A DNA stretch of 63,741 nt, counting the filler, from Folioceros fuciformis (taxonomy: Eukaryota), in the NCBI GenBank assembly GCA_049999805.1. It is 8 parts of 8 records of this genome, joined end to end, with 100 filler letters (N's around TTAATTAATTAA, not from the genome) between each part and the next. Parts side by side here need not be neighbours in the genome. Positions count along the whole stretch, not along the records: positions 44,539 to 49,494 come from JBNGIO010004346.1; 7 more parts are not named here. One strand, written 5' to 3'. The position numbers and the translations under genes were made by a program. The notes beneath the pieces were generated by a model that saw only the letters and a program-made list of their open reading frames with translations, was not told the DNA's origin and did not search any database. Below, in pieces: positions 4,906-63,741 of this stretch. The stretch's first letter is position 1, and each line of letters opens with the position of its first letter.

Positions 4906-6158
4906 TGTTGAGAAGCGCCCTTATTTTTGGTAGATGGGAGGGGCTGATAATTTTGGATAGAGGGTAGCTAACCGTGACAAGGGGTAACGGGCAATTAGAA
5001 GCAGGGGTAGGCTAGAGTTAGGGTTCTTGGTTGGGATTAGGTCTAGGTTAGACCTAGGTTAGGTCTAGGTTAGACCTAGGTTAGGTCTAGGTTAGACCTA
5101 GGTTNNNNNNNNNNGTTAGGTCTAGGTTAGACCTAGGTTAGGTCTAGGTTAGACCTAGGTTGGGTTTAGGTTTGGGTTAGACTAAGTTTAGGTCTGGGTC
5201 AGACCTAGATTAGGTCGGTTTGACTTAGGTTAGGTTTAGGTCAGCTCCGGGTTAGGTCAGACCTAGATTGGGTTAGGTTAGGTCATACCTAGGTCAGGTT
5301 TAGGTCAGAATTGGGTGCAGGATGGTTTAGGGCAGAGAGAGGTGGTTAGGTAGTTGATTCAGGTTAACCCTAGTAGACAGAGACGGAGAGAGAGGTGGTT
5401 AGATAGTTGATTCAGGTTAACCCTAGTAGACAGAGACGGAGGGTTAGGCAGTATAAGAGGGGAGACCTGCCATTGAGAGAGGGGGTCTACGGTGCGATTT
5501 CTCTTGACCTTGTGTGCAGAACTCCCGGCCTAGAGTGCTGAGCCGGTTTGAGACTGAACCGAGGTCCTGATTCCCCTTGCCACTAGGGGAATATGGAGGA
5601 TCCCAAGACTGCCAAGATCCGTGTGGCCGGATCCGCAAGGGCTAAATGTTTTGCAGGCTGGCTGAAGTGAAGTGACAGGACCGTGAGCTAGGAGGGCTAT
5701 CCAGTCCTAGTACCCACACCATGCTTGAAGACTACAAGGAGTGAGGCCGTTGTGTCCCAATTTCCCGGGGATAGCTAAAGCAAAGAGAGGGAGAGCTGGA
5801 GTGAAGTGCAGTGAAGTGAAGAGTGAGTTGCTGAGGTGCAGGAGTGTGTGCTGAAGTGAAGGGTGAATGACTAAAGTGAAGAAGGGAGGACTGAAGTGGG
5901 AATCATGAAGAGCTGAAGGACTGAAGAGCTAGAGTGTGAGTTTTGTGGGTTGATCTGAAGATAGGCTAGGATTCTGGCCTTTTTGCTGGTGTGTGTGGTC
6001 AGGCCTAGAGACCGGCTGATAGGTAGAAGTGTGAATAGACAGTCGTAGGTGTTCCTTGACACTAGTTCACTCCCTTGGGAGCGAATCATAAGATTGCAAC
6101 GACAATAAGGGAAAGTGTGGCCCTTTGGTGGTTCTTGGGTTCAAGGAATCACTCCACA
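4906..6158 (+). mobile_element. 3' LTR, family A copy 1
   Basis: Starts TGTTGAG right after the PPT and ends CTCCACA; TATA-like GTATAAGAG at ~5451; terminal ~110 bp match 44895-44997 and revcomp of 9390-9495. Confidence 0.8.
5030..5310. repeat. 22-bp tandem array (TTAGGTCTAGGTTAGACCTAGG) grading into telomere-like GGTTA/TTTAGG variants
   Basis: Direct reading; array is broken by a 10-N gap. Confidence 0.9.
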
Positions 6159-6212
6159 AAAGGTAAAGAATTCCTCACTTGCCTAAGAGATACTTGTAAA
6201 GGGAAAACTTCT

Positions 6213-9375: not shown

Positions 9376-9389
9376 TCCTGCTACCTATT

Positions 9390-10429
9390 TGTGGAGTGGA
9401 ACTTGCACCCAAGAACCACCAAGGGCCACACTTCCCCCTTATTATTGTCGTAGTACTAGGATTCGCTCCCGAGGGAGTGAACTAGTGTCAAGGTCCCCCA
9501 CAATCTTGCCCACACTACCCAGATCTAATTCTATCTATCAGTCGGCTCCTAGACCTAACCACCCTACAGCAAAAAGACCAGAACCTTGTCTTCAACACCA
9601 ACCATAACCCTGGTTGAATGAGGACTCAGCATCATCTTCACCTCCCACTTCCAGCTCCGGGTTTCAGCCGCCTCAACAGCTAGGAGGAGGCCCTAGCCCT
9701 GGCCTCGACCTCCACTCTCAGCCCTAAGTGCCAGCCACCTCAGCAGCTGATTAAGAACTTCAGCACCTAAGCTCCTCACCTCAGCGCAACCACTCCAAAC
9801 TCCAGCACCTCAAGTCTCTACTCCAACACTTCAACTCTTCAGCCCTTCACCCTCACGTCTCACTCCTGGATCTTTGGAACACAACAGCCCCTCACTTGCA
9901 GTCCTTGAGGTAGGGATGTGTAGACCTAGGCTGGATAGCCTCCTTGGCTCACAGCCCTGCAGTCCGTCGCCTTGGAAACCCCTTAGGGATCTCAAGGTAT
10001 CCCAACCACCCGACCAGCATGCAAGAGAGGTCAGCCCTTGCGGATCTGGCCACCCAGATCTCAGCAATTTTAGGAGCTGCCACGTTCCCCTAGTGGCATG
10101 GGGAATCAAGGCCGAGGTGCATCTGCACACTGTATTAACCCTCTAACCCAGCAGCCTGCAACACAGGGTCAAGGGAGCTCTTCACCAAAAAAACCTCCCC
10201 CCTCAATGACAAGCCTGGCCTCTTATACTCCCTTGGCAAGGAACCCCTTGTCACTGCCTAACCAGGTCAGCACGCCTCAGACAGAACCCTCCACTTGTCA
10301 AAACCCTAAACCTAACTCTGACCTAACCTTACTTTGACCTAACCCTAACCCCGACTTGTGCCCCTGGTTGCTCTTATAAAAAATAATCAACCTCTCAAAA
10401 CTACTAAAAATCGTGAGTGCCTCTCGACA
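9390..10429 (-). mobile_element. 3' LTR, family A copy 2
   Basis: Minus strand reads PPT AGAGGGGAAGAGAG (10430-10443), then TGTCGAG...CTCCACA; GTATAAGAG at ~10225; homologous to 4906-6158. Confidence 0.8.
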
Positions 10430-14128: not shown

Positions 14129-17100
14129 CTACTGATAATACTTCTTCACACGCCAGCCATTAACCATGGTTGGCAAGTTAGGGCCGTTGAGGTGCTGCAG
14201 TTGAATGGACCCATTCTCATACACCTCCAGCACCCTGTAAGGTCCCATCCATCTCAAGTGCAGCTTACCTGGAAAGTGCATGTACCTATTGTCATATAAC
14301 AAGGCTAAATCTCCAGGCACAACATTCTCTTGTTTACGCAACTTCTGGTCGTGCCACTTCTTCCTCCTCTCCTGAACATCAAGGAAAACAGCCAAGGCCC
14401 GTTCCCTATCCTCATCATGTTGCACAAAACTGGTTAGCGTCTCCAGTTGGCTCTCCTCCACGGGCAATCGATTGCCCCCCTGCATTCTCAAGGTGGGTAC
14501 CTCAAATTCGATGGGCATGATTGGTGAGTGTCCATAGGTGAGGTAATAGGGGGTCTGCTGGGTAGTAACCTTCTCAGTAGTCCTATACGCCCACAAGGCT
14601 GAATGGAGCTTCCTATCCCAGTCATGAGCATAGGTGATGGTGAGGTTGCTGAGAATCTTGCACAACAGCCCGTTAGCCTTCTCCGTGAGTCCATTGGCCT
14701 TAGGGTTGTAGGGATTGGTCTTCCTATGACTGATATTGAAATATTCAGTCATGTGCTTGACCACTTCATTGATGAAGTGAGTCCCCCTATCACTCACCAG
14801 CTCCAACGGGCATCCATACCTCGTGATGATCTGCTCAAACAAAAATCTGGCCACCACATTTGTTGTGTCCACAGGCAAAGCCTGAGCCTCCACCATGCGT
14901 GTGCAGTAGTCGGTTGCCACCAGGATGTATTGGTTCTGCCTTCCCTTGGACTTGGGCTGAATTGGTCCTACAAAATCAATCCCCCACTTCTCAAATGGTG
15001 TTAGGGCTAGGATGGGGACTAATGGCCATTGTGTTGTCCAGGTAGGCTTCCCCACCCTTTGGCATGCATCACACCTCTTGATGAATTCCCCAGCATCAGC
15101 ATGCATTGTTGGCCACCAATACCCTGCTGCCAGAATTTTTTCTGCAAGTCACATGGGCTGCATAATGACCTCCAGCCTCTCCCTCATGCAAGGAGCTGAT
15201 AACCTGCTCCACTTGGTCATGGTTGACCCACAAACGCTCCACTCCATCAGCTCCTGTGCGATACAACTTGCCCTTATGCTTAACTACCAGCCTCGTGAAA
15301 TAAAGGAACAGCCGTTGCTGCTGCCGTGAGAGATGAGGTGGAAATTCCCCCGTGCCTAAAAAATCAAATACCTATTGGTAAGACGGTTTGCGGACCCCTC
15401 TTCTCCCCTTCTCATTCGGCGCCACACCTCCATCTCTTGACAGCTTAGCATTTGGTTTGGCCCTTTCCTTCCCAACTAGCTCTGCTGAAAACGCCTCATC
15501 CGGAAAGTCATCTTCCTGGTCCTCAACTACTTTCTCTGTCTTCAGCCTTGACAGGAAATCAGCATTCACATGTCTGCGCCCTTCTCTTGTTTCCACAGTG
15601 AATGTGAACTCTTGTAGGAGCAAAATCCAACGGGCTATCCGGCCTGATAGATCTGCCTTGTTGACCAAGTGCTTGAGAGCAAAATGATCAACATGGAAGA
15701 CAAACTCATAGGAGAGGAGGTAATGACGAAATTTACGACATGAGTAGACCATGCCAAGTGCCTCCCTCTCGGTTGTGGTGTACTTGCGCTCAGCCTCCGT
15801 GAGTTGGCGTCCAGCATAATAGATTGGGTAGTCCCTCCCCTTCTCATCCCGCTGGCTTAGGACTGTCCCAATGGCAAATGTTGACACATCCACGTACAAA
15901 TGGAATTTCCTGTCCCAATCAGGCCCCTTGAGGGTTGGTGCTGTCACCAAAGTGGTCCTCAAGTCCTGAAATGCAACCTCCCTCTTCGCTGTCCATTCCC
16001 AAGATTGTTCCTTCCTCAATAGGCCTGTCAAAGGAGCAGCCCGTCTAGCAAAATTGGGCACAAAACGGCGATAGTAACCCACCATTCCAAGGAAACCACG
16101 CAGCTCCTTAAGTGTGGTTGGGGCCCTCAAAGCAGCAATCACCTTCACCTTATCCAGGTCCACTTCAATGCCTCGTGCTGAAATTCTATGACCCAGCAAG
16201 ATCCCTTCAGCCATGCCAAAATAGCAGTTCTCCGGATGCAAACAAAGTCGTGTGTCATGACACCTGGCCAAGCATAGTCTTAGGTGCTCCAGATGTTGCT
16301 CCACTCCTCCAGACACGCAAAAGTCATCTATGAACACCTCCAGGAAGTTGTGGAGGAAATCCTTAAAGATCTTGTACATGCTGCGCATAAAAGACCCCGG
16401 TGCTCCTGTCAGCCCAAATGCACTCCTCTTGTAGGCAAATGTTCCCTAATCAATTGTGAAGGCTGTCAATGGCCAATCACTCTCCCTTAGGGACAGTTGA
16501 TTGTAATTGGAGTAGCCATCCAAAAAGGAGTACGTCATGCAGCCAGCCACCAAATCCAGGATGTTGTCAATGAATGGTAAGGGGAAATGATCCTTCTTGG
16601 TGGCCTTGTTCAGCCTCCTCCAGTCTTGGCACACCCAAATCTTACCAGGCTGTTTCTTGGGCACCACCACGATTGGGGCCACCCACTCTGAATTCACAAT
16701 GGGAAAAATCACATATGCCTTCAAGTACTGCTCCAGCTGTTCCTTTACCTTCATGGAGTACTTTGGATTCAGCTTGTATTGTGGAATTCGGATGGGGACA
16801 GCTCCTGGTTCCAAGTCAATCTTGTGCTCCCCCCATTCTTTGGGAATTCCCTTCATGTCCGTCACCTCAAAGGCAAACACATCAATGAACTCAGCCAAGA
16901 GTTGCTTCATCCCCTCCTCCAATGTGGCATCCAGCTGTTTTGCAAACTTCAGCACTTTGCCTGGCAGTACCTCCACATCCTTGATTTCATCAGCCTGCAC
17001 CCATTCATGCTCCACTGGTGCTGAGCTGACTCCAAACCCCTCCTCCGGCTCCCGGGGATCTTCCTTCTGTTAAGCATGATTAATGTTCAGATTAATTAGT

Positions 17101-18835
17101 GCTAATCCATCTTATTGAGTTTGTACTAATTAGTGGTAAGAGTGATTAAGGTTATGATTAATATATATATATAGCTTATTAGACTTTGCTATGTTAGGCA
17201 AAAGAAGTATTGTAGGGTTTGGTTGGGGTCATTTATCCCATATTGGGCACGAAATGAGAGTGCCACCCATAGGTCCATAAAAGAAGGGATGAACCCACTT
17301 AGTATATGTAGTCTAACTCTCTCTTCACTTGTATTGTGTTGTTTTTGTAATTCTCCTTTTTATTTGAGTTTAAGAGCCTTGTTATAGTGCTCTTAGTTTT
17401 GGGATTCTGCATCTTGCTTCAACTAACTTGTTTTAACCTCCTTTGAGCATGGCGGGGGTGACATCTCAACACCTTCCTCATTCCCCATTCTCTGAATAAG
17501 TCCTCGGAGGTGAACATTGTGACCCCCGAATCATCACCACCAGGTCCATCAGCCCTTGGGTCACAGCCCCCTTCCATCAGCTCCCCTTCTTTCACACCGT
17601 CCTTGGCACGCGAACCCCCCTCCTGGACCTTCCCTTCAGTGACCTCACCAGCTTGCTCATCCACGGTTGCTCCTTTAGCCCCTACCATAGCGCAGTCTAG
17701 GGTGATTCCAAAACACTCCACCCGATTCAGGGAATAAGGAATGTCCCTCCGGTAGTCCTCCTCTTCATCTGACCATGAGATGTGAGAAAAGGGGAACTTG
17801 TCCTCCCCTTCCCCCTCCTCCGATTCAGATGTGTCTCCTACGGACGTATACCCCTCCGTTTCCGTGGGGGTCTCACCAAGATAGACGTCCAGGCTCCAAC
17901 TCAAGCAAATCCTGCCCTCCTTTGTCTTGGGGTCCCATTCCGGTGGTTTGAAGCCCACTTCCTTCCTCCCCCATGATAGCCTGCACCTTGAGTCAGTCAA
18001 CCAAGTCCTGCCCAGCAAGATGTCATAGCCCGGTGCCTTGTGCTGAATAACCACAAAATCGAGGAGGTAGGGAATGGTCCCTATGGTTGTGGTCACCCCC
18101 CTCAGCTCCCCCACCGGCTGCATCCTGAACATATCAGCCAGCCTCAAGACCTTGGTTGTGGGCTCCACCCCCAACCTGAGCTTCTTGGCAGTCTCCTCCG
18201 TCATGATATTCACTCCTGAACCCGTGTCCAACGGAACCCTCTTAATCATGCAGCCCGCAATCTCCACCTGCAACTCGGCCGGCCCTTGGTCCACCATGGA
18301 CACCATGTTGACCATAGGGGTTGACACCCTTGGCCTTGATTTAGGCAGCCTCTTCTTCTTCTTTGGTTGGGCTTCCTGCAAGGCCTTCCGGACTTGCTGC
18401 CGGTATTTGGGGTTGTCCCTCAAGAGCTGGCCAAAGGTGACAACGAATTGCTGATCCATGATGGCTCCAGCCAAGTCGAATGGCTTCTGGACAGCCCCGG
18501 CTGTGCTTTTAGTCACTGCTGCCACCTCCCTAGGTGGCTCACTTGCAGCCACAGGTCCTACCACCTTTGCTGCCTTATCCAGCTCCTCCTGGATCATGTC
18601 CATGACCTCTCCCCGTACATCTGGTGGAAATTCCAGGTTCCCCTCCTTTGCTGGAGCTACTTCCTTTTCAGCCCTTAATTTTTCCCTCTCAGAGATTTGT
18701 CCCCCCTTGTCTCCATCCTCATGGCCTGACCCTTCCACGTGTGGAGTGCTCTTCCCTTCCTCCTCCGATCTTGTAGTGGATTCAGCTTCCTTCCTTCTCT
18801 TCTTAGCACTCCGTTGCTTCCCTCTCTTCCTTCCA
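14129..18835 (-). pseudogene. Gag-linker/Pol polyprotein pseudogene (protease LDTGS, RT, RNase H, integrase)
   Basis: ORFs 17419-18945, 16446-17015, 15372-16388, 14129-15106; disrupted by stops, frameshifts and a solo LTR. Confidence 0.92.
17068..17471. mobile_element. Solo LTR (404 bp) with 5-bp target-site duplication CCTTC
   Basis: CCTTC|TGTTAAG...CTCAACA|CCTTC; removing it restores the pol reading frame. Confidence 0.9.
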
Positions 18836-19052
18836 CTTGGAAAATTACAGACTAGGATCGATAGATTGCACGATTGCAGAAAAGAATTGATTAGATTGTT
18901 CGTGGCCAGGATTGGCCTTAAGCCAAGAAGTTTGCTCCGGTTCACAGTGTTGTGAACGGTGGTGACGATTAGTTAGGTTACGACCCTCTATCAGGTCGTG
19001 ACTCCTATGAAACGCCGAGGCGTTTCATATCTCAGCATTTTGCCCTAATACA

Positions 19053-42019: not shown

Positions 42020-43752
42020 TCAACTCTTTGAATGAGATTTTTCATACTCCGCCACCACTTCGTCTGCAATATTGCCCTCGGGCTCCCAGGTGTTCTCTTC
42101 AGAATCGGCCCACTTCACCAGGTATTCCACCTTCCCATTCACCTCCCTCTTGTCCAGAGCCATTTCAGCTATGCCGTATTCAAGCCCCTTCTCATAGTCA
42201 CTCACAAGGTCTTCTCCTACGTCGCTGGCGGGAATCCAAGAATCCTCCGAGCCATCACTCCATTTCACAAGGTACTCAGTAACGGCACGCTCCCCTATCC
42301 GCTTATCCAGAATCTGCTCCACTTCAACAGTTTCAAAAATTGCTTCGTCGAGAAGCTTGACAACCTGCGATGGCACTTTGGATCAGCGGCAAGAAGCAGA
42401 GAATCAAGTGGAAAGCGCCATACACGTTCTGCTACAGTGATGACACCAAATTTGCTCAAGTAAGGCATGAGTAGTCTGCGGCACCTGATCAAGTGCTAAT
42501 CTCTTCGCAAATAACATGGGATTCGTCTTAGGCATTCCGTTGAGAAGGTCCTGAGCAAGCTTCAGTGATGATCGGCCCTTAGCGTCTTCTAGCTCTGGGT
42601 CAGCTCCGAGCTCCAGTAAAGCTCGCACTACGCTGGTATGTACGTAGCCCGAGGCGATGTGAAGAGCTGAGTAGCCATCCTTGTCTTGCCAGTGGATATC
42701 AGCCCCCGCTTCCACCAGCTGCCTCACACACCTGCATTCACGTGGACGGTGAGTGAAAACAACGCTGCAAAAGCCTTCTCTTTGTTACGCAGACAGACTC
42801 ACAACTCCACTGAGCCTTCTACTCCATGACCAAACTACCTCTCAGATCCCATGCCAGCAGCAAATAGTAAGGCCGTGCGCTCATTCTCATCAATAGCATC
42901 TACATCTCTCCTGTCATCCTGTAATAATTCAACCAGCTTTTGATCCTCTGCTTTGCGTGCAGCTTGCCACCACACAGATTCGTACTCACTAAGCACATCC
43001 CTAGCTATGTTCTCGGCAGGTTCCCACGAGTCAGGATGATCATCCTTCCACTCTATCAGGTACTGCGTTTTCCTGTCAACCACACGGCTCCCCAGTATCT
43101 TGTTCACCTCCCCGTACGTCTCCTCTCCCTCATTCTCCGAGGAAGCGCCGTCCTCCTGCAAACCTTCCCGGTCCCCTGCCCGACCAGCCACACCATTCTG
43201 AGAAGCCACGGAATCTTTCTCCGCCGAAAGTGTGCTTTCAGCCTGCAAGCACCGAGCCAGAGTCTCCAGATTCCCGATTTGCTGCCCTTTCTGCGAGAAT
43301 CCCTTCCAAAAATATCTCTGTCCTACGGTACAACCACATTCAGCAGCACAAGAAGTGATCAGAAAACATTTAGCCCCATTCTCCGGTTTGCACAAAGACA
43401 CGGAGATTCCTGTTCCCTAAGAAAATCCATTTCCTGGCACAACTGCCATGCCTTTGAGTAGAGCTGGCCAAAGATCTCTCAACCGCACCGCAGCAAAACA
43501 AGATATCGGCGGAGCACACTCACCCGCACTGGACATGGACCATCTTCCCTCGCACCTTGCGGCAGGACAGCTGCAGCGGGCTCGCACAGCAGCCGTGCCA
43601 TGCGTGCGACTGGCAATGGAGTCAACTCGTCCAGCCCTTGCCAGGCAGAACGACCTGATTCCATCGGCCGAAAGCCCCTCCTGGAGTTTACAAGCCGCCG
43701 GACAGGAGGCAGCCGCAGGGGCGTGAATTGCTGCCATGGTGCAATGCCCCAT
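42020..43752 (-). CDS. cpSRP43: Chloroplast signal recognition particle 43 kDa protein (chromodomain 1, ankyrin repeats, chromodomains 2 and 3)
   Basis: [11 protein letters not shown]...[51 protein letters not shown]; four exons; start at 43752 or 43737. Confidence 0.95.
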
Positions 43753-44538
43753 TCCGGCCGCTGCTCTCGATCCTGCACCTGCTCAACCCGCGCCTCTGCT
43801 CGCTGTCCTCCGCTCCTGAGCGTCCCGACTTCAACGGCCTGTCAATGTGTCCCCGTTCCGCCAATTCAACGGGTTCCGTTGCGATCGCCATCTTATCCAA
43901 CCGAGCCCAGATTCACGGGCTCACCTTTCCGGCTTTCTTAAACTGCAGGGCAGCGTAAAGGAACATCCCCATCATGTAGCGAATCGTAGCTACCATAATA
44001 AACCAATGGCATCCACTAATCCAGATAATCATTATACACATATTTTTATTATATCTCCATAAAATTTAATATAAATAAATAAATAAATATTTTCTTAGAA
44101 ATTTACTTTACAGGATATATCACTAATATTATTCTTTCTTTATATTTTAACCTTGGAACTTTATTCCACACAGTTCTCTAGAACATATATTACAAGATAG
44201 TTATTGAATTATATTAATATTAAACCATAGAATTCATTAAAAAATATTATTAAATATATTTATATCACTTACTTCACATATCTTGGGCATGAACATTAGT
44301 TTGAGATTTAAAAAACTATTTATGATGAAGGATGAATTAATTTTTTTATTATAATATAAAAATAATAAATTTTCAAAATCTTAATTTTGGGAGGAGTAGA
44401 TACTGTATTTTGAGAATAATGTTTGAAGGGGCTAGTACNNNNNNNNNNNNNNNNNNNNNNNNNNNNNNNNNNNNNNNNNNNNTTAATTAATTAANNNNNN
44501 NNNNNNNNNNNNNNNNNNNNNNNNNNNNNNNNNNNNNN

Positions 44539-44997
44539 GTGAAGGACTGAAGTGCTGAAGTGAAGGACTGAAGTGCTGAAGTGGTAGAATGAAGTGTTGG
44601 AGCTGGAGTGAGGAGCTAGCTGAAGTTGAGGTTCTCGTTCAGCTGCGGAGGTAGCTAGCACTAGGTGCTGAGAGTTGGAGGCCAGACTTGGGGCTGGAGC
44701 CTCCTCTTAGCACTGAAGTGATTGATACTTGGAGCTGGGAATGAGGGCTGAAGACAATGCTGGAGTTCTCATTTTGTTGAGGCTGGGGTTGGTGTTGTGG
44801 TAGGAGCCGAAGACAGGACCGAGACTTCTGACCTATTGCTGTAGCACTTGGTATATGCTGATAGATAGGGTGAGATTAGGGAGATGTAGGTAACCTTGAC
44901 ATTAGTTCACTCCCTTGGGAGCGAATCATAAGACTGCAACGATAATAAGGGGAAGTGTGGCCCCTTGGTGGTTCTTGGGTGCAAGTTTCACTCCACA
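44539..44997 (+). mobile_element. 3' part of family A LTR (copy 3)
   Basis: CTGAAGTG repeats and the same terminal block as 6050-6158, ending CTCCACA. Confidence 0.85.
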
Positions 44998-45527
44998 GAA
45001 GGTCTAGGGCAGAAACCCATGGGTGGAAACCCGCGGCGGCGCCTGCGCCGGAAATAATTAGTTAGGGTTTGGGGTGGGACCCACCACGGAGGTAGCCGAA
45101 GCGGTAGTTGAAAGACGACAGAGGTAGCCGAAGCAGCTACCGGTAGTTGAAAGACGACGGAGGTAGCCGAAGCNNNNNNNNNNGCCGAAGCAGCTACCGG
45201 TAGTTGAAAGACGACGGAGGTAGCCGAAGCGGCTACCGGTAGTTGAGCCCCTACCTCGGTAGTTGAAGGGTTGGCAGTTGTAGAGATCCCCACCCCAGTA
45301 GCCGAGTAGGTCTGTCAGGTAGTCCAGGAACAGAGGTAGGGGTAGTTGAACTTGTAGGTAGTGGAGCTGGGGTAGTTGAAGTTCAACCTAGGTAGTAACT
45401 GACTTTTAGAAGAAACCTGTGTTATTTGATATAAATCATTCCCTTGGGATCGAATCCCAGTGCTATAACGACAAAGACGGTTTGTGTGAACCTCGCAGCA
45501 CCCCTGGGTGCAATATTTTCCCCCACA
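44998..45527 (+). mobile_element. Terminal part of family B LTR (copy 1) with 39-bp hairpin repeats
   Basis: Reverse complement of 52681-53199; ends CCCCACA. Confidence 0.85.
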
Positions 45528-48374
45528 GGATGCTTCCTCTTTGTCGTGCACACCAAGGCTATTGGTCATCCTGCCACTCTTTGGTGGTTTACTACACATG
45601 AGATCAACAAAAGGAATGGCTATCTTCTACTCCTTCTCCCTCGCTGCGATACCTTCACTCCCCCCCTTAATCTGCTGACCATCTCTCGTTGGAAAGCCAG
45701 ATTAACAAACTTTTCATTAGCATACATACACGACAAACATACTGCCCTTCCTAATGTATCAACTGCTACACACATTGGACAAAACCACTGCCCATCTGGC
45801 ACTGCTTCTAGCGGAGGCTCTAAACAAAAAGTATGCCACCCATCATTGCACCTATCACACAACAACATGCAATGATCACCTCCAGAATCTCCACAACCTA
45901 TACAAGCGAACCCCTTCCTTCGCACAAAAGCTTGCACATCAATTATCGGATTCAAGTGAGGTAAATGACATGGTGCACAATTCTTCATGTGTTCCAAACA
46001 AGTTGTGCCATCCTTTCCCTCCAGCTCCAGAATTCCATTCAACTTCACACTTCTCACCCTTAATATTATCCTACTCGCACTTGTATCAATTGTTGTCATC
46101 GTCTTCCTCTGCAAATATACATTATCTCCAACTTCAAACTTTTTCACCTTGGGCTTGAAATGTCCACTCCTCGTTTTCCTATATCTTAGCTCATCCCTAT
46201 GTTGAGCTATTAACAAATTATCCATTGCCATAGGCATTATTTTTCTAAACAACCCCGCTCTATAGGTGACTATCTTTAACCACTTATTAGGATCGTCCAA
46301 ATCCACTATAGCATTAACCTTGTCTTCTAACATCCTAGATAACTGTGGTCTACGCCCAAACAATAGCATGTACGGTGAAAACTCTCCAAGCGATGCTTGC
46401 CTACTCATCCTATAACCCATCGCAAGAAATGGTAACATCGTATCCCACTCACTCTTGTCCATTACTAGACAATATTTCCTCAAACCACTCTTACATGTCT
46501 GTACCATTCTTTCTGCTAAACCATCAGCCTCCGGATGATTTCTTGAAGTTACCCTATGATCAATAAGGTACTCATTTAAAAATTCATCAAATTCTCCATA
46601 AATTCAGTGCCTTGATTTGTCAAAACTTATGCACAAGCCCCAAAAACACTTAACACATGATTGAGAAATGCTTCCTTAATGTCATGTGACTTCTTCTCTC
46701 TCAAAGGCACCAAAACTATCCATTTAGAAAAATTTTCTATCGTCACCAACACATATTTAAAACCTCTACGTGTGACTGGTAACTCTCCAGCCAAATCCAA
46801 ACTCCACCTATAAAACATCCCCCTAATAGGCAGCGGATGAAGTTGAGAAGTTTTGCCTGAGAAACTTGCCTTCACCCTATCACAAACCTCACAAGTAGAC
46901 ACCACCCTCTCAACTACATCCATCATTCCCTTCCAATAATAACTATTCATGAGCAAACTTAATGTTCTTTTTGTACCAAAATGTCCTAACTTTACATGAA
47001 TCATTCTTGCCAAACCCATTCTTTCTTCAAGTCTTGGTACCACCCTCACGTTATCTTTAAACAACAACTTATTATCAACCCATACATATCTCCTACTTCG
47101 CTTTGTCACCCTATCATTTTCCTTCACCGTTAGCGTTTCCTAATTACCACCTGTCAACACCCTCTCTAATGTATTCTTATCCTCCCACACATCTGTTGGC
47201 ACCGAAGAAACTCCCAACTCCACCAAATTCACCAAGTATGCACTAGGTGTCCATCTGGACACCACCAGATTACAGTCAACCCCAATATTCTTATCAAAAT
47301 CCTGCCTGGCAACTGTTGAGTCCTCTGAAGTTCCTAATGGATTCCTTGACAACACATCTGCATTTGCATGTTTCACCCCCGCCCTATGCTCAATAGAAAA
47401 ATTATACTCTTGCAAAATAAGTGCCCAGCTTGCTAACTTTCCTATCAACTTTTCACTCTTCATCAACCACTTCAAAGGCTGATGATCTGTCACCAACTCA
47501 AATTGAGCCCCATACAAATAAGGCCTAAAGTGTGATACTGACCATACAGCCGCCAAACATTCCCCATGATATGAGGAATAATTACTCTCTGCAGAATTGT
47601 TACTCCTGCTTGCATATGCTACCACATGTTCTACCCCACTCTCATCATCCTACGCTAGTACTGCTCCCAAACCAAGTTTACTCCAATCTATATATAACTG
47701 GAACTTTCTGTCAAAATTAGGTCTTGTCAACAAGGGCTTGCTCATCAAAACGTCCTTTATCTCCTTAAATGCTCTCTATTGATCTTCCCCCCAAACCCAC
47801 ACTGCATCTTTCTTCAACAACATTGTCATTGGTTTTACCACCACACTGTGGTTTGCCACAAAATTGCGATAATAATTCACCAATCCTAAAAAAGAACGCA
47901 AAGTTCCTACATCTGAAGGTGGAATCATTTTTGCTATCGCTTCAACTTTAACATCATATGGTGCCGTACCCCTAGGCTCTATAAAATGTCCCAAATATGC
48001 TATCTTAGAGGACCCAAACCTGCACTTTTGTGGGTGACACGTCAAACCAACCTCTTTCAATCTATCCAACACTCACCTAACATGCTCCTTATGTTCTTCC
48101 ACACTGCTACTAAAAATTATTACATCATCTATGTAACATCTGGTGAATGACAAACCTCTCAATGCTTGATCCATCGCTCTCTGAAAAGCACTAGGAGCAT
48201 TCTTCAATCCAAATGGAATAACCACCCATTCCCACAAACATCTATTACCCCAAAAAGCAGTCTCCTTCTTATCCTCCTCCTCAATTTCAATTTGGTTAAA
48301 GCCACCCTCAAATCAAATGTTGAGAATATATTACATTCACCAATCGCATCAAAAATCTCCTCTAGAGTTGGCAT
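45528..48374 (-). mobile_element. Ty3/gypsy retrotransposon fragment: RT, RNase H, integrase with C-terminal PHD finger, PPT, start of 3' LTR
   Basis: MPTLEEIFD, PFGLKNAP, YIDD, LVTDHQPLKWL, H..LGHFG...C..C, WSLDLAG; PHD at 45770-45904; PPT AAGGGGGGGAG then TG at 45657. Confidence 0.92.
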
Positions 48375-49494
48375 TGGATCGACACAGTTTCTTTCACTGG
48401 CTGAAGTGAAGAGTGCTTTCTCTTATTAAGTTTGTAGACAGCGGGGAGCGAGAGCCGGAGGGCGAGAGGCATTAGCATACAAACTATCCAAATGATTAAG
48501 TGTTGATAAAGAACAAAAAAGGGTCTTTAAATATAGTTTCGAAGTACTATCCACAGAACCCTAACCTAGCCGGTTAGTTGACCAGTGTAGGGTTATCCCT
48601 TTCAACACTCCCTCTTAGCCTAACGGCGTCAACGGATTACGGCATAGAGGGGAACGTCGATACGTTCCGTTCTGTGGAGAAGCGGAAGCGCCATCGCCCA
48701 GCACTGTCGAGCTCCAGGCGCCCAAGATGGGCAGATCCACGACGGAAACCCTCACTGTGGCGGCTCTCCTCGTTGCTCTAGCAGATGGAAGACAGGAGCA
48801 TCAGAGCTGGACGCCATTGAGGGTGGAACAGCTGATCAAATTTGCTGGTTGGGAGGGCAAGTGGTCGATGGAGATCGCCATAGCCAGAGTTAGGCGTGCC
48901 GAAGAAGTCCTCAAGCGATATGCTTCGTGCGAGCATGATACCGGGGATTGGCAACAAGGTCAAGAGCACCAGTATTGTCGCAGAGGATAGGAGTGGGAGA
49001 AAGTTGAGGATGACCAAGATCAGCCAGAAACTGTCGAGCCCACTCTGCCTCCTTGGAGGCTTCTGTAAGAGATTTGTATTCAGCCTCCGTCGAGGACAGG
49101 GCTATTGTCGTTTGTTTCTTGCAGCTCCAACTCACAGATGCATTGGCCAGCAAGAAACAGTAGGTTGACAAACTGCGACGTCCATCACTGTCCGAACCCC
49201 AGTCTGCATCCGTGAAACCAGAGAGATGGAATGTGCCTGTACCACTCCGTTTGTAGAATAACCCATAGGTGTGAGTGCCCTGCAGGTAACGGAAAATTCG
49301 CTTTACGGCGACCCAATGAGGGCGTCCAGGGTTTTCCATAAATTGGGAAGCGGTGCTCACTGCATACTGTATGTCGGGGCGAGTCCAATTTGCCACAAAC
49401 AAGAGACTGCCAACAGCATGCCTGTAAGGGACATCTGCCATATCCTATTTTGCTTCAGTGGTGGTAGGATATTGAGAAAGCGTCAATTTGATGC
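48375..49494 (-). mobile_element. Ty1/copia 3' fragment (RT end, RNase H, PPT, ~233-bp 3' LTR 48375-48607) inserted into the gypsy RT
   Basis: PYRHAVGSLL, TRPDI, GFTDADWGSD, ALSSTEAEY, RTKHI; PPT TAAGAGGGAG followed by TGTTGAA. Confidence 0.85.
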
Positions 49495-51192: not shown

Positions 51193-52680
51193 CCAACTGG
51201 GATAACTAACACCACATGAGTTTAGCTCATATAGAGCTCAATAACTCAACATCCTTCCCCTCCTCTCGTAGGTAGATTCCCTACGAGAGTAAGTACCCCT
51301 TATTGCATGCTCTTCCTAGCCCATAGCCGCTTCTCAAGTTCCGATTGCGAGCTTTCCAGGTCCATACTACTATCCTCTTGAAAGTCTGTTGGTAGGGGCA
51401 CTGTCTCCAGGGCCTCACGGTTGTCATCATGTAGCCCAAGATACCTTCGCCTTGCCAATGTTGCCAGCTCCTTGTGATGAGTGAGTAGACGTTGGTGTAG
51501 GTGGAGGTTGCGATTATGTTGAGCTAGATCTATGGTATCCATGTCAACAACCCAATCCCCACCCTCGCATCTACTCTTGTAGATATCCCGTTCAGCCTCC
51601 ATCACCCCTACCTTCAACTGTAGGTCAAGGTTTTCTTGATGAGTTGCATGAAGCTTGGTCCTGTACCTCGTCAAGTAGGCATAGTCAGCACGAAACCTAC
51701 GAGCTCGAACCACCAGCATCCTGTGAATCTTGGTATGGTGCTCAGCTTCTTGTTGTGCTTTCTCTTGCCGAAGGTGTTCTAATTGGATGGTCAATTGTTC
51801 CCTCTCCACTCGCTCTCGTTGCCCTGCTTCAAGGCATTACTGGAGTTCTTGGTTCGCTTTAGCATTTTGTGCCTCCAACTCATCTAGCTTGCCTTGTAAA
51901 TCCTTTGTAAAGTAGACTTGTTCCCGTAGCTTTTCCTCTACCACCTTCCTAGTTTCCTCAGACTGGGTGAGGTCCCTTCGACAGCAATGATCTCATGGGA
52001 TAAGCCTTGTTGGGAAGTCTGCAACGTGGTCACCTACTTGGTCAACTTCTCCAATCCTTGCCTTTGCTCACCATCCTTGAGGAGATACTGTTCTCGCTCC
52101 TTTTCCAATTCCTGCACTTTGGATTCTAGTCGTGCCTGGTTTGCATCCCGACTTATGTTCTCCTGAAGTAGGGTTGCAATCATTGCACGGACCTCTCCCC
52201 AATTGATGTTTTGTAGCTGTTGGCCACACTGAATGATGTTGCTCCACACTCCCAACGAAGTGTCATTACCTTGGTTTGTGGCGTGTGCTCCCCAGGCTGC
52301 CTCCCAATTCATTGGGCTCCTTCTCCCCAAATCTGGTGCTCCACACTGTGCTTGCACTATTGGTGTCATCGCCAAATCCCCTACCTAGTACCCTACTTCA
52401 ACTATTGGCTAGCTTGGTCTAGGATCCCTCATTGTCTCCATCTTAGTTGGGGTGGAATCTAGGGCTATGGGGGTGGTGGCTAATGGTAGCCTTTGGTCCC
52501 TTTGCTGCTCCTTGGGTCTCCATATCAACGGGGTGTCATCTTCATCAGACTCATCATAGGCTGCCATGGTTGATTCGAAATCAAGTGGGGACTCCTTATC
52601 CGTAAGAGGGGTCGACACTCCATCGGAAATAAAAGCCTTCCCCTGCAATAAGACAACTACAAAAGGTTGTTCAGCCTCCT
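51193..52680 (-). mobile_element. Family C element copy 2: C-terminal coiled-coil part of extra ORF, PPT (51252-51267), start of 3' LTR
   Basis: ORF remnants 52409-52680, 52034-52375, 51300-51809; PPT GAGAGGAGGGGAAGGA then TGTTGAG. Confidence 0.8.
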
Positions 52681-54462
52681 TGTGCGGGAAAATATTGCAC
52701 CCGGGGGTGCTGCGAGGTCCACACAAAGCCTCTTTGTCGTTATAGCACTGGGATTCGATCCCAAGGGAATGATTTGTGTCAAATAACACAAGTTTCTTCT
52801 AAAAGTCAGTTACTACCTAGGTTGGACTTCAACTACCCTAGCTCCACTACTTACAGGTTCAACTACCCCTACCTCCGTCCTTGGGCTACCTGACAGACCT
52901 ACTCGGCTACTGGGGTGGGGGTCTCTACAACTACCGACCCTTCAACTACCGAGGTAGGGTCTCAACTACCGGTAGCCGCTTTGGCTACCTCCGTCGTGTT
53001 TCAACTGCCGGTAGCCGCTTCGGCTACCTCCGTCGTCTTTCAACTACCGGTAGCCGCTTCGGCTACCTCCGTCATCTTTCAACTACCAGTAGCCGCTTCG
53101 GCTACCTCCGTGGTGGGTCCCACCCCAAACTCTAACTAATTATTTCCGGCGCAGGCGCCGCCACGGGTTTCCAGCCACGGGTTTCTGCCCTAGACCTTCC
53201 AGACTCACAGAGCTGGGTTATTCCATGCTCCCCACACATGCAAGGGCTGATTCTTGGGGAACAAAGCCTTGCGGATCAGCCACACCTCCCCACTCACTCA
53301 TGCAACACTCCACATACATACAAAACACACATAAGAGCTCTGGATCACAATTATTCTCACAAGCCTGCCCCTAAGGGCTTCAATCTTCAGCAATGTCCAC
53401 CAATCTCCAACAAATCCTTCACAACTCCTCACAATCCCTCACAATCTCTCATGGGTTTCCATAGGCTTCCATAGCCGCTCACAAACACCTCGAAATCTCG
53501 CAGCAACTCTCCCGATTTCGCATCCAATCTTCAGGGTTCTTCCTCCATTCTCTTGCAATCTTCTCAGCTGTTTTCTCCAGCTCTTCAACAATGTCTCCAG
53601 CAATCTTACAGCAACATCAGTAGCCTTCCACAGTCCTCCACAAACATCCAGGGATTCCTAAGAAAATCCCCAGCAATCTCGTCCAAACCTCAGCAAACAA
53701 TCACCCAACAATTTCTCAACGATTTCTCAACAAATCTCCTCCAGCAATCTTCCATGGTTCTCTTCAGTCTTCCAACTCTCTCTCCTCACCAGATTTAGCA
53801 CGCAGCTGATGGTTCAGGGAATAAGGGAAGGAGGAAATCTCCCTCCACTCCAGCAGCAGTGGATTCGTCCCCCTCTTCTCAGCTACAGACAAAAATCAGT
53901 CCTCACTCTCTTCTTCTCAACTCACTCCAGCTCCTCAGCCTCCTTCTCCTCCTCTTCTTACTCACTCTTCTCATGCATTCTCCAACACTTCTTCTTCTCT
54001 CACACACTCTCTTCTCTCACACACTCCTTCTCCTTCTCAACTCACACTCTCTTCAACTCCAGATTAAAAATGCAGTCAACCAACTTAGCGAATAAGAGAA
54101 GGAGAAGCTCTCCCTCCACTCCAGCAGTGGTGGATTCGTCCCCCTCACTTTCCACTGTAAACACAACTGACTGTTCAGGGAATAAGGGAAGAAGGTGCTC
54201 CTTCCACTCCAGCAACTGTGGATTCGTCCCCCTCACTTTCAGCTGTGGAGCAAAAATCCTCAACTACCCCTAGGAGCGTCTCGCACTCACAGCCTCACCC
54301 AAACCTCTCTAGTCTCGCCATGGACAGCGCAGGGGATCTCAACCGGGAGTCTCAAACATTGGCTAATCAGCGAGGCACCGATAGGCCCCTTTTGTACAGA
54401 GTTTCCAAGAGCAGGAGCCACATCCCGTCTTAAATTCTAGCTCTAAAATAGTCAACTTTTAA
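52681..54462 (-). mobile_element. Family B LTR (copy 2), inserted into family C
   Basis: TG at 52681 exactly where homology to 1-397 stops; 39-bp repeats 52962-53110; three ~65-bp repeats 53810-54245; right boundary approximate. Confidence 0.75.
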
Positions 54463-61995: not shown

Positions 61996-62095
61996 NNNNN
62001 NNNNNNNNNNNNNNNNNNNNNNNNNNNNNNNNNNNNNNNTTAATTAATTAANNNNNNNNNNNNNNNNNNNNNNNNNNNNNNNNNNNNNNNNNNNN

Positions 62096-63741
62096 AAACT
62101 CTGGATTGCCTAACAGATTTTGGGCAGAAGCAGTGGTTACTGCGGTGCATCTTATTAACAAATCTCCCAATACGGCTGTGGATGAGCAGGTTCCAGAAGA
62201 GATGTGGTGTGGAAAGAAGCCATCATACAAGCATCTACGAGTGTTTGGCTCCGAGGCAAACTACCATGTTCCGAAGGAGTTTCGGGACAAGTTGGCTCCC
62301 AAGTTAAGAAAATGTATTTTTTTTGGCTATTGTGAATATGGACAGATAGGATACCGTCTATGGGATCCAGAGGCCAAGAGGGTGGTTCGCAGCAATGATG
62401 TGTTCTTCAATGAGACCAAGATGCACAAGAAGCCTACTCCAACTGTGGAGGTGCGATGGGTGGTCTTCCAAGAAGATGGACTTGACCGTCCCGCGCTGGT
62501 TAAACGTCGTGATGTGCAGGAACTAGCTCCTCCACTTATAGAAGAGGAGAGAGTGCAACCAGCTCCGGTCGAGGCGCCTGTGCTTCGTAGGTCAGGAAGG
62601 ATCTCACGGCCTCCTGACAGGTATGTTGCATCTCTTGATTATGTCATGCTGACGAATTGTGGGGAGCCCTCTTGTTATCAAGAGGCCATGTTAGTGACAA
62701 ACAAGGACAAGTGGAAGAAGGTAATGCAGTCACAGATGGATTTGCTCCATAAGAGACAAACTTGGGAGTTGGCTCGGTTGCCTAGGGGCAAGAAGGCGTT
62801 GCCATGCAAATGGGTGTATAAGATGAAGAGCATACCCCATTATGGAAAACCCAAGTACAAGGTAGGTGTCGCGCAGCAGCCGCATAGCTGCATGCCTACC
62901 TAGCCTGTCTACCNNNNNNNNNNAAACTCTGGATTGCCTAACAGATTTTGGGCAGAAGCAGTGGTTACTGCGGTGCATCTTATTAACAAATCTCCCAATA
63001 CGGCTGTGGATGAGCAGGTTCCAGAAGAGATGTGGTGTGGAAAGAAGCCATCATACAAGCATCTACGAGTGTTTGGCTCCGAGGCAAACTACCATGTTCC
63101 GAAGGAGTTTCGGGACAAGTTGGCTCCCAAGTTAAGAAAATGTATTTTTTTTGGCTATTGTGAATATGGACAGATAGGATACCGTCTATGGGATCCAGAG
63201 GCCAAGAGGGTGGTTCGCAGCAATGATGTGTTCTTCAATGAGACCAAGATGCACAAGAAGCCTACTCCAACTGTGGAGGTGCGATGGGTGGTCTTCCAAG
63301 AAGATGGACTTGACCGTCCCGCGCTGGTTAAACGTCGTGATGTGCAGGAACTAGCTCCTCCACTTATAGAAGAGGAGAGAGTGCAACCAGCTCCGGTCGA
63401 GGCGCCTGTGCTTCGTAGGTCAGGAAGGATCTCACGGCCTCCTGACAGGTATGTTGCATCTCTTGATTATGTCATGCTGACGAATTGTGGGGAGCCCTCT
63501 TGTTATCAAGAGGCCATGTTAGTGACAAACAAGGACAAGTGGAAGAAGGTAATGCAGTCACAGATGGATTTGCTCCATAAGAGACAAACTTGGGAGTTGG
63601 CTCGGTTGCCTAGGGGCAAGAAGGCGTTGCCATGCAAATGGGTGTATAAGATGAAGAGCATACCCCATTATGGAAAACCCAAGTACAAGGTAGGTGTCGC
63701 GCAGCAGCCGCATAGCTGCATGCCTACCTAGCCTGTCTACC
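62096..63741 (+). mobile_element. Ty1/copia integrase C-terminus to RT start (818 bp), present twice (62096-62913, 62924-63741)
   Basis: FWAEAVVTAVHLIN, HLRVFG, GYRLWDP, DVFFNE, TWEL..LP.GKKAL.CKWVYK. Confidence 0.93.

Follow-up and report, generated by a model that had tools for sequence, protein, structure and literature searches.

A decayed Ty3/gypsy retrotransposon copy in Folioceros fuciformis with a PHD finger behind its integrase and a predicted preference for unmethylated H3K4

Described systems and the Folioceros copy

PHD fingers within the Gag-Pol of Gypsy elements have been published for Chlamydomonas (PMC9940879), in which the PHD is called a common accessory domain of transposable elements (TEs) (PMC9940879, PMC8557442). 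Across 172 eukaryote genomes, most fusions of TEs with chromatin domains involve PHD and Chromo domains (bioRxiv 10.1101/2021.11.30.470311), and Gypsy elements with DNMT3 have been described from Klebsormidium (PMC5890265). The locus compared here with these systems lies in a 63,741-nucleotide stretch of DNA from Folioceros fuciformis (assembly GCA_049999805.1; eight parts joined with filler letters), referred to as the window. Positions 44998-48404 (minus strand), within the part taken from JBNGIO010004346.1, are a decayed and 5'-truncated copy of a Ty3/gypsy long terminal repeat (LTR) retrotransposon, in which a stop-to-stop frame of 327 codons (46603..45620, minus strand) encodes the C-terminal half of the integrase and then a PHD finger.

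Gypsy-7a_cRei, alongside which REM1 is cited, is like the window family an LTR Gypsy Gag-Pol element with an accessory PHD finger, and targeted insertion was suggested by its authors (PMC9940879). Gypsy-7a_cRei is an active element of 15.4 kb whereas the window copy is a dead land-plant fragment, and the two were compared by description only. In chlorophytes, the volvocine algae among them, relatives of the window protein have the finger behind the integrase. PHD-bearing Gypsy elements are thus already known, both from Chlamydomonas and, as TE-PHD fusions, across eukaryotes, and the window copy adds a dead land-plant example; the novelty suggested by an earlier reading of the window, made from the sequence alone, was overstated. 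That sequence-only reading had also mentioned PHD-bearing gypsy elements from green algae and Selaginella; such elements are published for a green alga (Chlamydomonas, PMC9940879), and a single literature search turned up nothing for Selaginella.

Chromoviruses resemble integrase-PHD elements in having a chromatin reader fused to the integrase C-terminus, with histone-mark tethering as the proposed logic. The two are set apart by the C-terminal domain, which in chromoviruses is a chromodomain with H3K9me as its mark and here is a PHD finger, for which the predicted mark is histone H3 unmethylated at Lys4 (H3K4me0). The chromodomain PF00385 was absent from the window open reading frame (ORF) and from the seven relatives scanned, and the PHD stands there instead.

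KnitGypsy-Dnmt3 comes from Klebsormidium nitens, and the best named matches of the window protein include Klebsormidium proteins (53% identity). It carries a DNA methyltransferase (DNMT), and a C5 DNA methylase is likewise part of the Pol in many of the window protein's relatives. No DNMT remnant was found in the window; the region before the reverse transcriptase (RT) that holds the methylase in an environmental relative (L002, below) is missing from the window copy. In the searched part of PMC5890265, the terms 'zinc finger', 'chromodomain' and 'PHD' were not found.

The integrase-PHD fusion and its conservation

Translation of 45620-46507 (minus strand) yielded a single open frame containing the finger, and on the same strand upstream of it were a piece of RT, an RNase H ORF, and the H2C2 domain and first part of the catalytic core (rve) of the integrase. 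The assignment to a Ty3/gypsy integrase in the sequence-only reading was borne out by a family profile, which matched the integrase of Ty3 Gag-Pol (7q5b) at E 5.7e-22 and also matched the PFV integrase. The complete in-frame C4HC3 finger that had been placed at 45904-45770 was recovered in the translation and by Pfam PF00628 (E 4.5e-9; 36.6 bits against a cut-off of 24; residues 234-278 = 45904..45770). Its first Cys is residue 234 (45904-45902) and its last Cys is residue 278 (45772-45770), with the canonical ligand spacing C-x2-C-x11-C-x2-C-x4-H-x2-C-x14-C-x2-C. In the same Pfam scan, rve was matched at E 2.1e-5 on residues 110-167 of the ORF 47139..46627, which is under the curated cut-off because the core is cut. 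The identity and architecture of the element, a Ty3/gypsy element with an integrase-PHD fusion, are in our judgement close to certain.

The 327-aa frame was used in two database searches that together listed 240 relatives, and 209 of these carry the PHD at the same place as judged by a profile built from their fingers; the finger therefore belongs to the element, as had been claimed. All of the other 31 terminate before the finger's end, one of them inside the first CxxC. These PHD-less relatives represent truncated models or decayed copies, with no other domain at that place in any of them. The order RT, RNase H, integrase, PHD was found in 6/6 full-length Pols scanned, and the finger does sit where chromoviruses place their chromodomain. 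It lies at the very C-terminus in P0136, P0128, P0126 and P0125 (e.g. residues 1307-1351 of 1353); in P0170 (Pleodorina) and P0156 a further tail follows.

The last 165 residues were also searched against 1.84 billion representative proteins (50%-identity representatives), which gave 857 matches at E 1e-10 or better. Among the best 150 representatives of these 857, an integrase C-terminal region with a PHD was present in 119, and the remaining 31 were assorted non-TE multi-PHD proteins with scores summing over repeats. Because the non-TE matches are such a mixture, no donor gene for the finger can be named. A metagenome scan recovered at least 436 relatives among 600 candidate stretches, and the integrase-PHD fusion was present in 77 of 80 metagenome loci. 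One environmental locus (L002:1-6384) is apparently intact, with an uninterrupted ORF of 1047 aa (RT, RNase H, integrase, PHD) that ends in the finger; its ORF1, which lies upstream with one same-frame stop between the two, encodes an aspartyl protease and a C5 DNA methylase. LTR pairs were seen neither in the loci of seven relatives (repeat search) nor in 16 relatives' loci of 9-12 kb (self-blastn), which may not extend far enough. Either the elements are longer than the 6-kb flanks or their ends are unusual.

Named hosts of the relatives comprise Klebsormidium nitens, the liverworts Calypogeia and Marchantia, and Sphagnum, and among chlorophytes Haematococcus, Chromochloris, Tetrabaena, Gonium, Volvox and Pleodorina. 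In a quick maximum-likelihood tree of 52 rows with a midpoint root, chlorophyte and streptophyte groups were separated (SH-aLRT 80). The window copy was placed among the streptophytes with a branch length of 0.74 (median 0.14), and the position of so long a branch is uncertain. It is a member of a large green-lineage clade (chlorophytes, Klebsormidium and bryophytes) in which Pol ends in RT, RNase H, integrase and PHD finger. Separately, a protein atlas holds a cluster labelled integrase/PHD-finger/integrase core (PHD in 99% and rve in 94% of members; score 0.82) that is commonest in Mollusca, a lead, and only that, to integrase-PHD fusions in animals also.

N gaps at 44439-44538 and 45174-45183 make the assembly near the finger fragmentary, and the PHD could on that account be a captured host exon or an assembly chimera private to the window copy. 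No gap lies between the integrase and the finger. Three DNA runs (X1-X3) from one sample of the same organism were compared with 45300-48100, and their contigs covered 30/30 bins, the finger-coding bins included, at identities from <90% to >99%; parts of the finger region are passed over by a few individual contigs. An origin as chimera or captured exon is contradicted by these contigs, by the listed relatives from many organisms and by the metagenome loci, and its probability is vanishingly small.

The relatives keep the zinc ligands as well as the PHD itself, counter to the refuting conditions that the sequence-only reading had set for both. Each of the eight ligands is retained in 179-183 of 184 distinct fingers. 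All eight were intact in 55 of the 77 metagenome loci covering the region (31/41 loci with an open frame and 24/36 loci with stops), and the losses, mostly Cys to Tyr or Phe, are those expected of decaying copies. Synonymous and non-synonymous changes were counted by the Nei-Gojobori method in 14 non-overlapping pairs from the 41 open metagenome copies; the 36 copies with stops were excluded, as were pairs with pS below 0.03 or above 0.6, and the sample consists of metagenome loci. The analysis of dN/dS on the PHD gave 0.35 for the finger (pN/pS 0.39, bootstrap 0.25-0.58, synonymous excess p = 8e-9) and 0.39 for the adjoining part of the integrase (pN/pS 0.41, bootstrap 0.28-0.62). Given these near-equal values, the finger is as constrained as the integrase to which it is fused. 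Several individual pairs had more non-synonymous than synonymous changes, which fits decay after insertion.

Type of the finger and its predicted mode of action

The last 165 residues were modelled with AlphaFold (AF2) from a 50-row alignment. The predicted local distance difference test (pLDDT) was 91-95 over the finger, which was predicted to form a cross-brace two-zinc fold. When the predicted model was superposed with Foldseek on the solved PHD fingers of ATXR5, BAZ2A and DPF3, the root-mean-square deviation (rmsd) was 0.7-1.2 Å. Individual matches included BAZ2A bound to an unmodified H3K4 peptide (1.2 Å, 48 columns, 46% identity), ATXR5 with H3 (0.7 Å, 45 columns, 51%), BHC80 (1.2 Å, 53 columns) and KDM5B PHD1 (51% identity), and DPF3 and UHRF1 were also matched. 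In a PDB sequence search the best match was KDM5A PHD1 (E 6e-15). The 60 PDB matches listed include KDM5A/B PHD1, Lid, CHD4, MLL3/KMT2D, WSTF, ATXR5 and BAZ2A/B as well as PHF12, DPF2/3, UHRF1/2, PHF21A and AIRE, with no ING, BPTF or TAF3 finger among them. A search with the family profile pointed the same way.

Trp at the position two residues before the zinc-binding His (His-2) is a hallmark of H3K4me3-binding PHD fingers. The window finger has Gly at His-2 and Trp directly before the His, and across 184 relatives' fingers the position holds Gly in 171, Ala in 9, Pro in 3, Ser in 1 and Trp in none. The cellular readers KDM5A/KDM5B/Lid PHD1, BAZ2A/B, ATXR5 and BHC80 share with it the C4HC3 spacing, the lack of Trp at His-2 and the pattern (M/L)LLCD..C..(W/Y)H..CL.PPL..(V/I)P.G.W.CP.C. 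The window finger is 42-56% identical to these readers, with an rmsd of 0.7-1.5 Å to crystal structures and 2.2 Å to the KDM5B NMR model. The KDM5, BAZ2, ATXR5 and BHC80 fingers are domains of host chromatin enzymes, whereas the window finger stands at the C-terminal end of a transposon integrase. Placing it in the KDM5-PHD1/BAZ2 type, as the sequence-only reading did on noting Gly at His-2, is supported by the residue itself, by the PDB sequence matches and by the superpositions of the predicted model.

Canonical histone-tail readers thus match at 40-56% identity and superpose at 0.7-1.5 Å, and this argues against a cross-brace finger that binds DNA at the element ends or the target, in the manner of the cysteine-rich domain of piggyBac transposase. 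The piggyBac domain is a precedent for such a role, being a PHD-like cross-brace finger with sequence-specific DNA binding (PMC5861402). Given that no DNA-binding finger was prominent by name among the matches listed, we consider DNA binding highly improbable.

On sequence and modelled fold, the predicted reading of H3K4me0 is well founded, because the finger is closest in both to readers of the unmodified H3 tail and has Gly rather than Trp at His-2. Binding and targeting, which we infer, would proceed as follows. In active members the finger would bind the H3 N-terminus when Lys4 is unmethylated, and would hold the integrase-cDNA complex on nucleosomes without H3K4me2/3. Such a tether would be excluded from H3K4me2/3 promoters, and insertion would be biased away from active promoters, by analogy with the chromovirus chromodomain that tethers integrase to H3K9-methylated chromatin. 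Chromodomains that direct integration provide the precedent for a reader-guided integrase (Gao 2008). Judged from sequence likeness and the model, binding of H3K4me0 by the finger of active members is somewhat probable, and on balance we lean towards the proposal as a whole, mechanism included. A measurable effect of the finger on insertion sites, which is argued by analogy, is possible but somewhat doubtful.

The literature searched yielded no test of which mark a retrotransposon PHD reads. Several observations weigh against the proposal. Literature searches found no binding or insertion data on the clade. For Gypsy-7a_cRei, 86 insertions in Chlamydomonas are recorded, 25 of them in untranslated regions (UTRs) and many between genes (PMC9940879); in a compact genome UTR and intergenic sites are near promoters, and the pattern therefore need not mean avoidance of H3K4me3. 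Because H3K4me0 extends over most of a genome, a tether of this kind may be hardly selective. The window finger itself is possibly no longer typical, given its long branch (0.74) and private substitutions. In BHC80/AIRE-type readers, an acidic residue a few positions before Cys1 contacts unmodified K4. The Asp found three residues before Cys1 in relatives is Gly in the window copy and is present in only 88/184 fingers. Among the acidic residues that would meet H3 Arg2 and unmodified Lys4, the Asp after Cys3 is present in the window copy and in 179/184 fingers.

The scarcity of the Asp before Cys1 also speaks for a general nucleosome tether, by which the finger would grip the free H3 N-terminus (Ala1/Arg2) and make integration more efficient, discriminating K4 methylation states little or not at all, or would read a different state, for example R2 or K4me1. 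By entry titles, the close Foldseek matches include UHRF1, in complexes with unmodified H3 as well as H3K4me3 peptides, and an EHD3 entry with H3K4me1. In the other direction, the closest sequence matches (KDM5A/B PHD1 and BAZ2A/B) were solved with, or are described as binding, unmodified H3K4. The fingers moreover have an acidic loop before the MLLCD motif, with D/E enrichment at columns 16-19. A tether indifferent to K4 methylation is accordingly unlikely, though it deserves some weight.

The finger may also serve the element's own chromatin rather than the aiming of integration, acting after insertion or during expression, for instance with an element-encoded C5 DNA methyltransferase, or competing with host silencing readers. 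DNMT3 enzymes have an ADD domain that reads H3K4me0, and the pairing of PHD and methylase resembles them. PF00145 DNA methylase and PHD occur in one Pol in, for example, P0156, P0162, P0164, P0204, P0208 and P0210, ORF1 of L002 also carries the methylase, and KnitGypsy-Dnmt3 is a published case (PMC5890265). Against this role, fusion to the integrase C-terminus is the position of known targeting modules, and the PHD is not accompanied by a DNMT in most of the relatives listed. In the window copy, the upstream part of which is lost, RNase H adjoins the integrase with no DNMT between. We regard action on the element's own chromatin as quite unlikely and retain reader-guided integration as the preferred explanation.

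Anatomy of the window copy, its surroundings and wider meaning

The features of the copy and of its LTR in the window are as follows.

47653..48404, minus strand: RT remnant with YIDD box, 5'-truncated, with in-frame stops (tblastn with full-length relatives; read-through translation)
47140..47649, minus strand: RNase H domain ORF, 169 aa, in-frame stop at 47142-47140 (Pfam RT_RNaseH E 5.5e-28; RT_RNaseH_2 E 1.4e-13)
46867..47025, minus strand: integrase N-terminal H2C2 zinc-binding domain (Pfam Integrase_H2C2 E 1e-14, residues 39-91 of ORF 47139..46627)
46400..46812, lower bound approximate, minus strand: integrase catalytic core (rve), interrupted (Pfam rve, tblastn, Ty3 and PFV integrase profile matches)
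45905..46399, minus strand: integrase C-terminal region, small beta-strand domain (AF2 strands and conserved H-x3-C-x2-C-H motif)
45770..45904, minus strand: PHD finger, C4HC3, KDM5-PHD1/BAZ2 type (Pfam PF00628, PDB sequence matches, model and Foldseek)
45620..45769, minus strand: basic tail of 47 residues after the finger, then stop codon 45622-45620 (translation)
45533..45547, minus strand: polypurine-rich tract (PPT) just upstream of the LTR (direct sequence reading)
44998..45527, minus strand: 3' LTR of ~530 bp, starting TGTGG (89.5% identical copy elsewhere in the window; contig breaks at 45527)
52673-53199, plus strand: second LTR copy in opposite orientation, without adjoining pol (blastn 89.5% over 545 columns)

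The full-length relatives P0128, P0136 and P0126 align from 48404, 48374 and 48303 downward (tblastn). Similarity to full-length relatives starts only at 48404, and gag, protease and the start of RT are therefore missing from the window copy; beyond this point lie a Copia-like fragment and assembly gaps. Five in-frame stops were counted between RT and the integrase core (read-through 48405..46600). The core is broken by the stop at 46629-46627 and by a frame change near 46597-46600, where two tblastn segments in different frames meet (46600/46597). The window copy is dead and can no longer do any of the proposed targeting, a decay on which the sequence-only reading was silent. Both plus-strand ORFs across the region lacked a Pfam match at E 0.01.

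In the integrase C-terminal region, AF2 strands were predicted at residues 20-24, 29-33 and 39-43 (pLDDT 90-95). A conserved H-x3-C-x2-C-H motif ('NCAPCH') stands within 45905-46060 (minus strand), ~20 residues before the finger, with C50 conserved in 48/49, H51 in 44/49, C47 in 36/49 and H43 in 35/49 rows of the family alignment; it may be a further zinc site or a pre-PHD element. The tail after the finger is longer than in streptophyte relatives (1-15 residues) and was modelled with low pLDDT (47-64).

The only Ty3/gypsy LTR hallmarks left in the copy are the 3' LTR and the PPT, the 5' part being lost. The finger had been placed about 100 bp upstream of the PPT and LTR. This distance applies to the end of the ORF, since the stop at 45622-45620 lies ~73 bp before the PPT (45547-45533) and ~93 bp before the LTR start at 45527, and not to the finger itself, which ends ~220 bp before the PPT. 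The LTR edge is supported by DNA-run contigs that break away exactly at 45527 (19 in X1, 15 in X2). Within the LTR are 39-bp tandem repeats (45102-45268; repeat families D2/D3) and a 10-N gap (45174-45183), and its far end is non-canonical or not resolved. Directly after the LTR homology, at 44857-45003 (minus strand), is an LTR-like restart TGTGGAGTGAAACTTGCACCC, which is 85-88% identical to 6015-6164 and 9383-9494 and may be a related LTR abutting the element. The LTR copy at 52673-53199 is either a solo LTR or the terminus of a further insertion, and no second integrase-PHD was found anywhere in the window.

Each DNA run gave ~900-1000 contig pieces at >=80% identity on 45300-48100, and given this number and the spread of identities described above, the element family is high-copy and old in this genome. 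Contig depth in the runs cannot rank the parts of the element. A run guessed to be RNA gave three short contigs at the PPT/LTR edge only and is uninformative on expression. Differences between the window copy and X1 contigs were C>T 136, T>C 98, G>A 77 and A>G 65, with each transversion type at 4-24; a transition excess (X1-X3) is as expected of old, probably methylated repeats.

Host genes in the window are SLY1 (70-72% identical to liverwort and lycophyte proteins, 65% to Physcomitrium and 83% to one further protein), a PLS-type PPR gene and a cpSRP43-like gene, which point to a land plant. Exons of the last, with three chromodomain matches and an ankyrin repeat, lie at 42020-43416 (minus strand), ~1 kb beyond the element's LTR, and these chromodomains belong to the host gene and not to the element. 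At 14129-18972 (minus strand) lies another Ty3/gypsy copy, which is unrelated to the first and has long open frames; its integrase ORF (14129-15148) has rve and H2C2 with neither PHD nor chromodomain and shares only 26-34% identity with the PHD clade. Two adjoining Copia-type integrase frames at 62052-63731 (plus strand), identical either side of a 10-N gap (62914-62923), are probably an assembly duplication. The gaps at 44439-44538 and six other places consist of 44 N, TTAATTAATTAA and 44 N, a scaffolding linker and not biology.

Taken alone the window is ordinary, with one decayed copy of a high-copy family. More widely, integrase-PHD elements might form an ancient, Viridiplantae-wide Ty3/gypsy lineage parallel to the chromoviruses, with an H3K4me0-type reader and often a DNMT3-like methylase of its own, choosing or marking chromatin with unmethylated K4 and unrecognised by that feature in current plant classification; we put this forward tentatively, as a view with less than even chances. 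The word 'PHD' is absent from the REXdb classification of plant LTR retrotransposons (term search; PMC6317226), in which Phygy and Selgy, two clades outside the chromoviruses, might belong to the integrase-PHD lineage. A description of the clade in bryophytes was not found in the literature, although supplements and Repbase may contain one.

The choice of integration sites determines the harm that transposons do and where genomes grow, and the textbook tether of LTR retrotransposons has so far been the chromodomain with H3K9me. If the proposal is true, the PHD finger would add another widespread reader module, one with unmethylated H3K4 as its predicted mark, and would offer a natural contrast for testing reader-steered integrases. 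In relatives the finger occurs together with element-encoded DNA methylases, a hint that some transposons may be writers as well as readers of chromatin.

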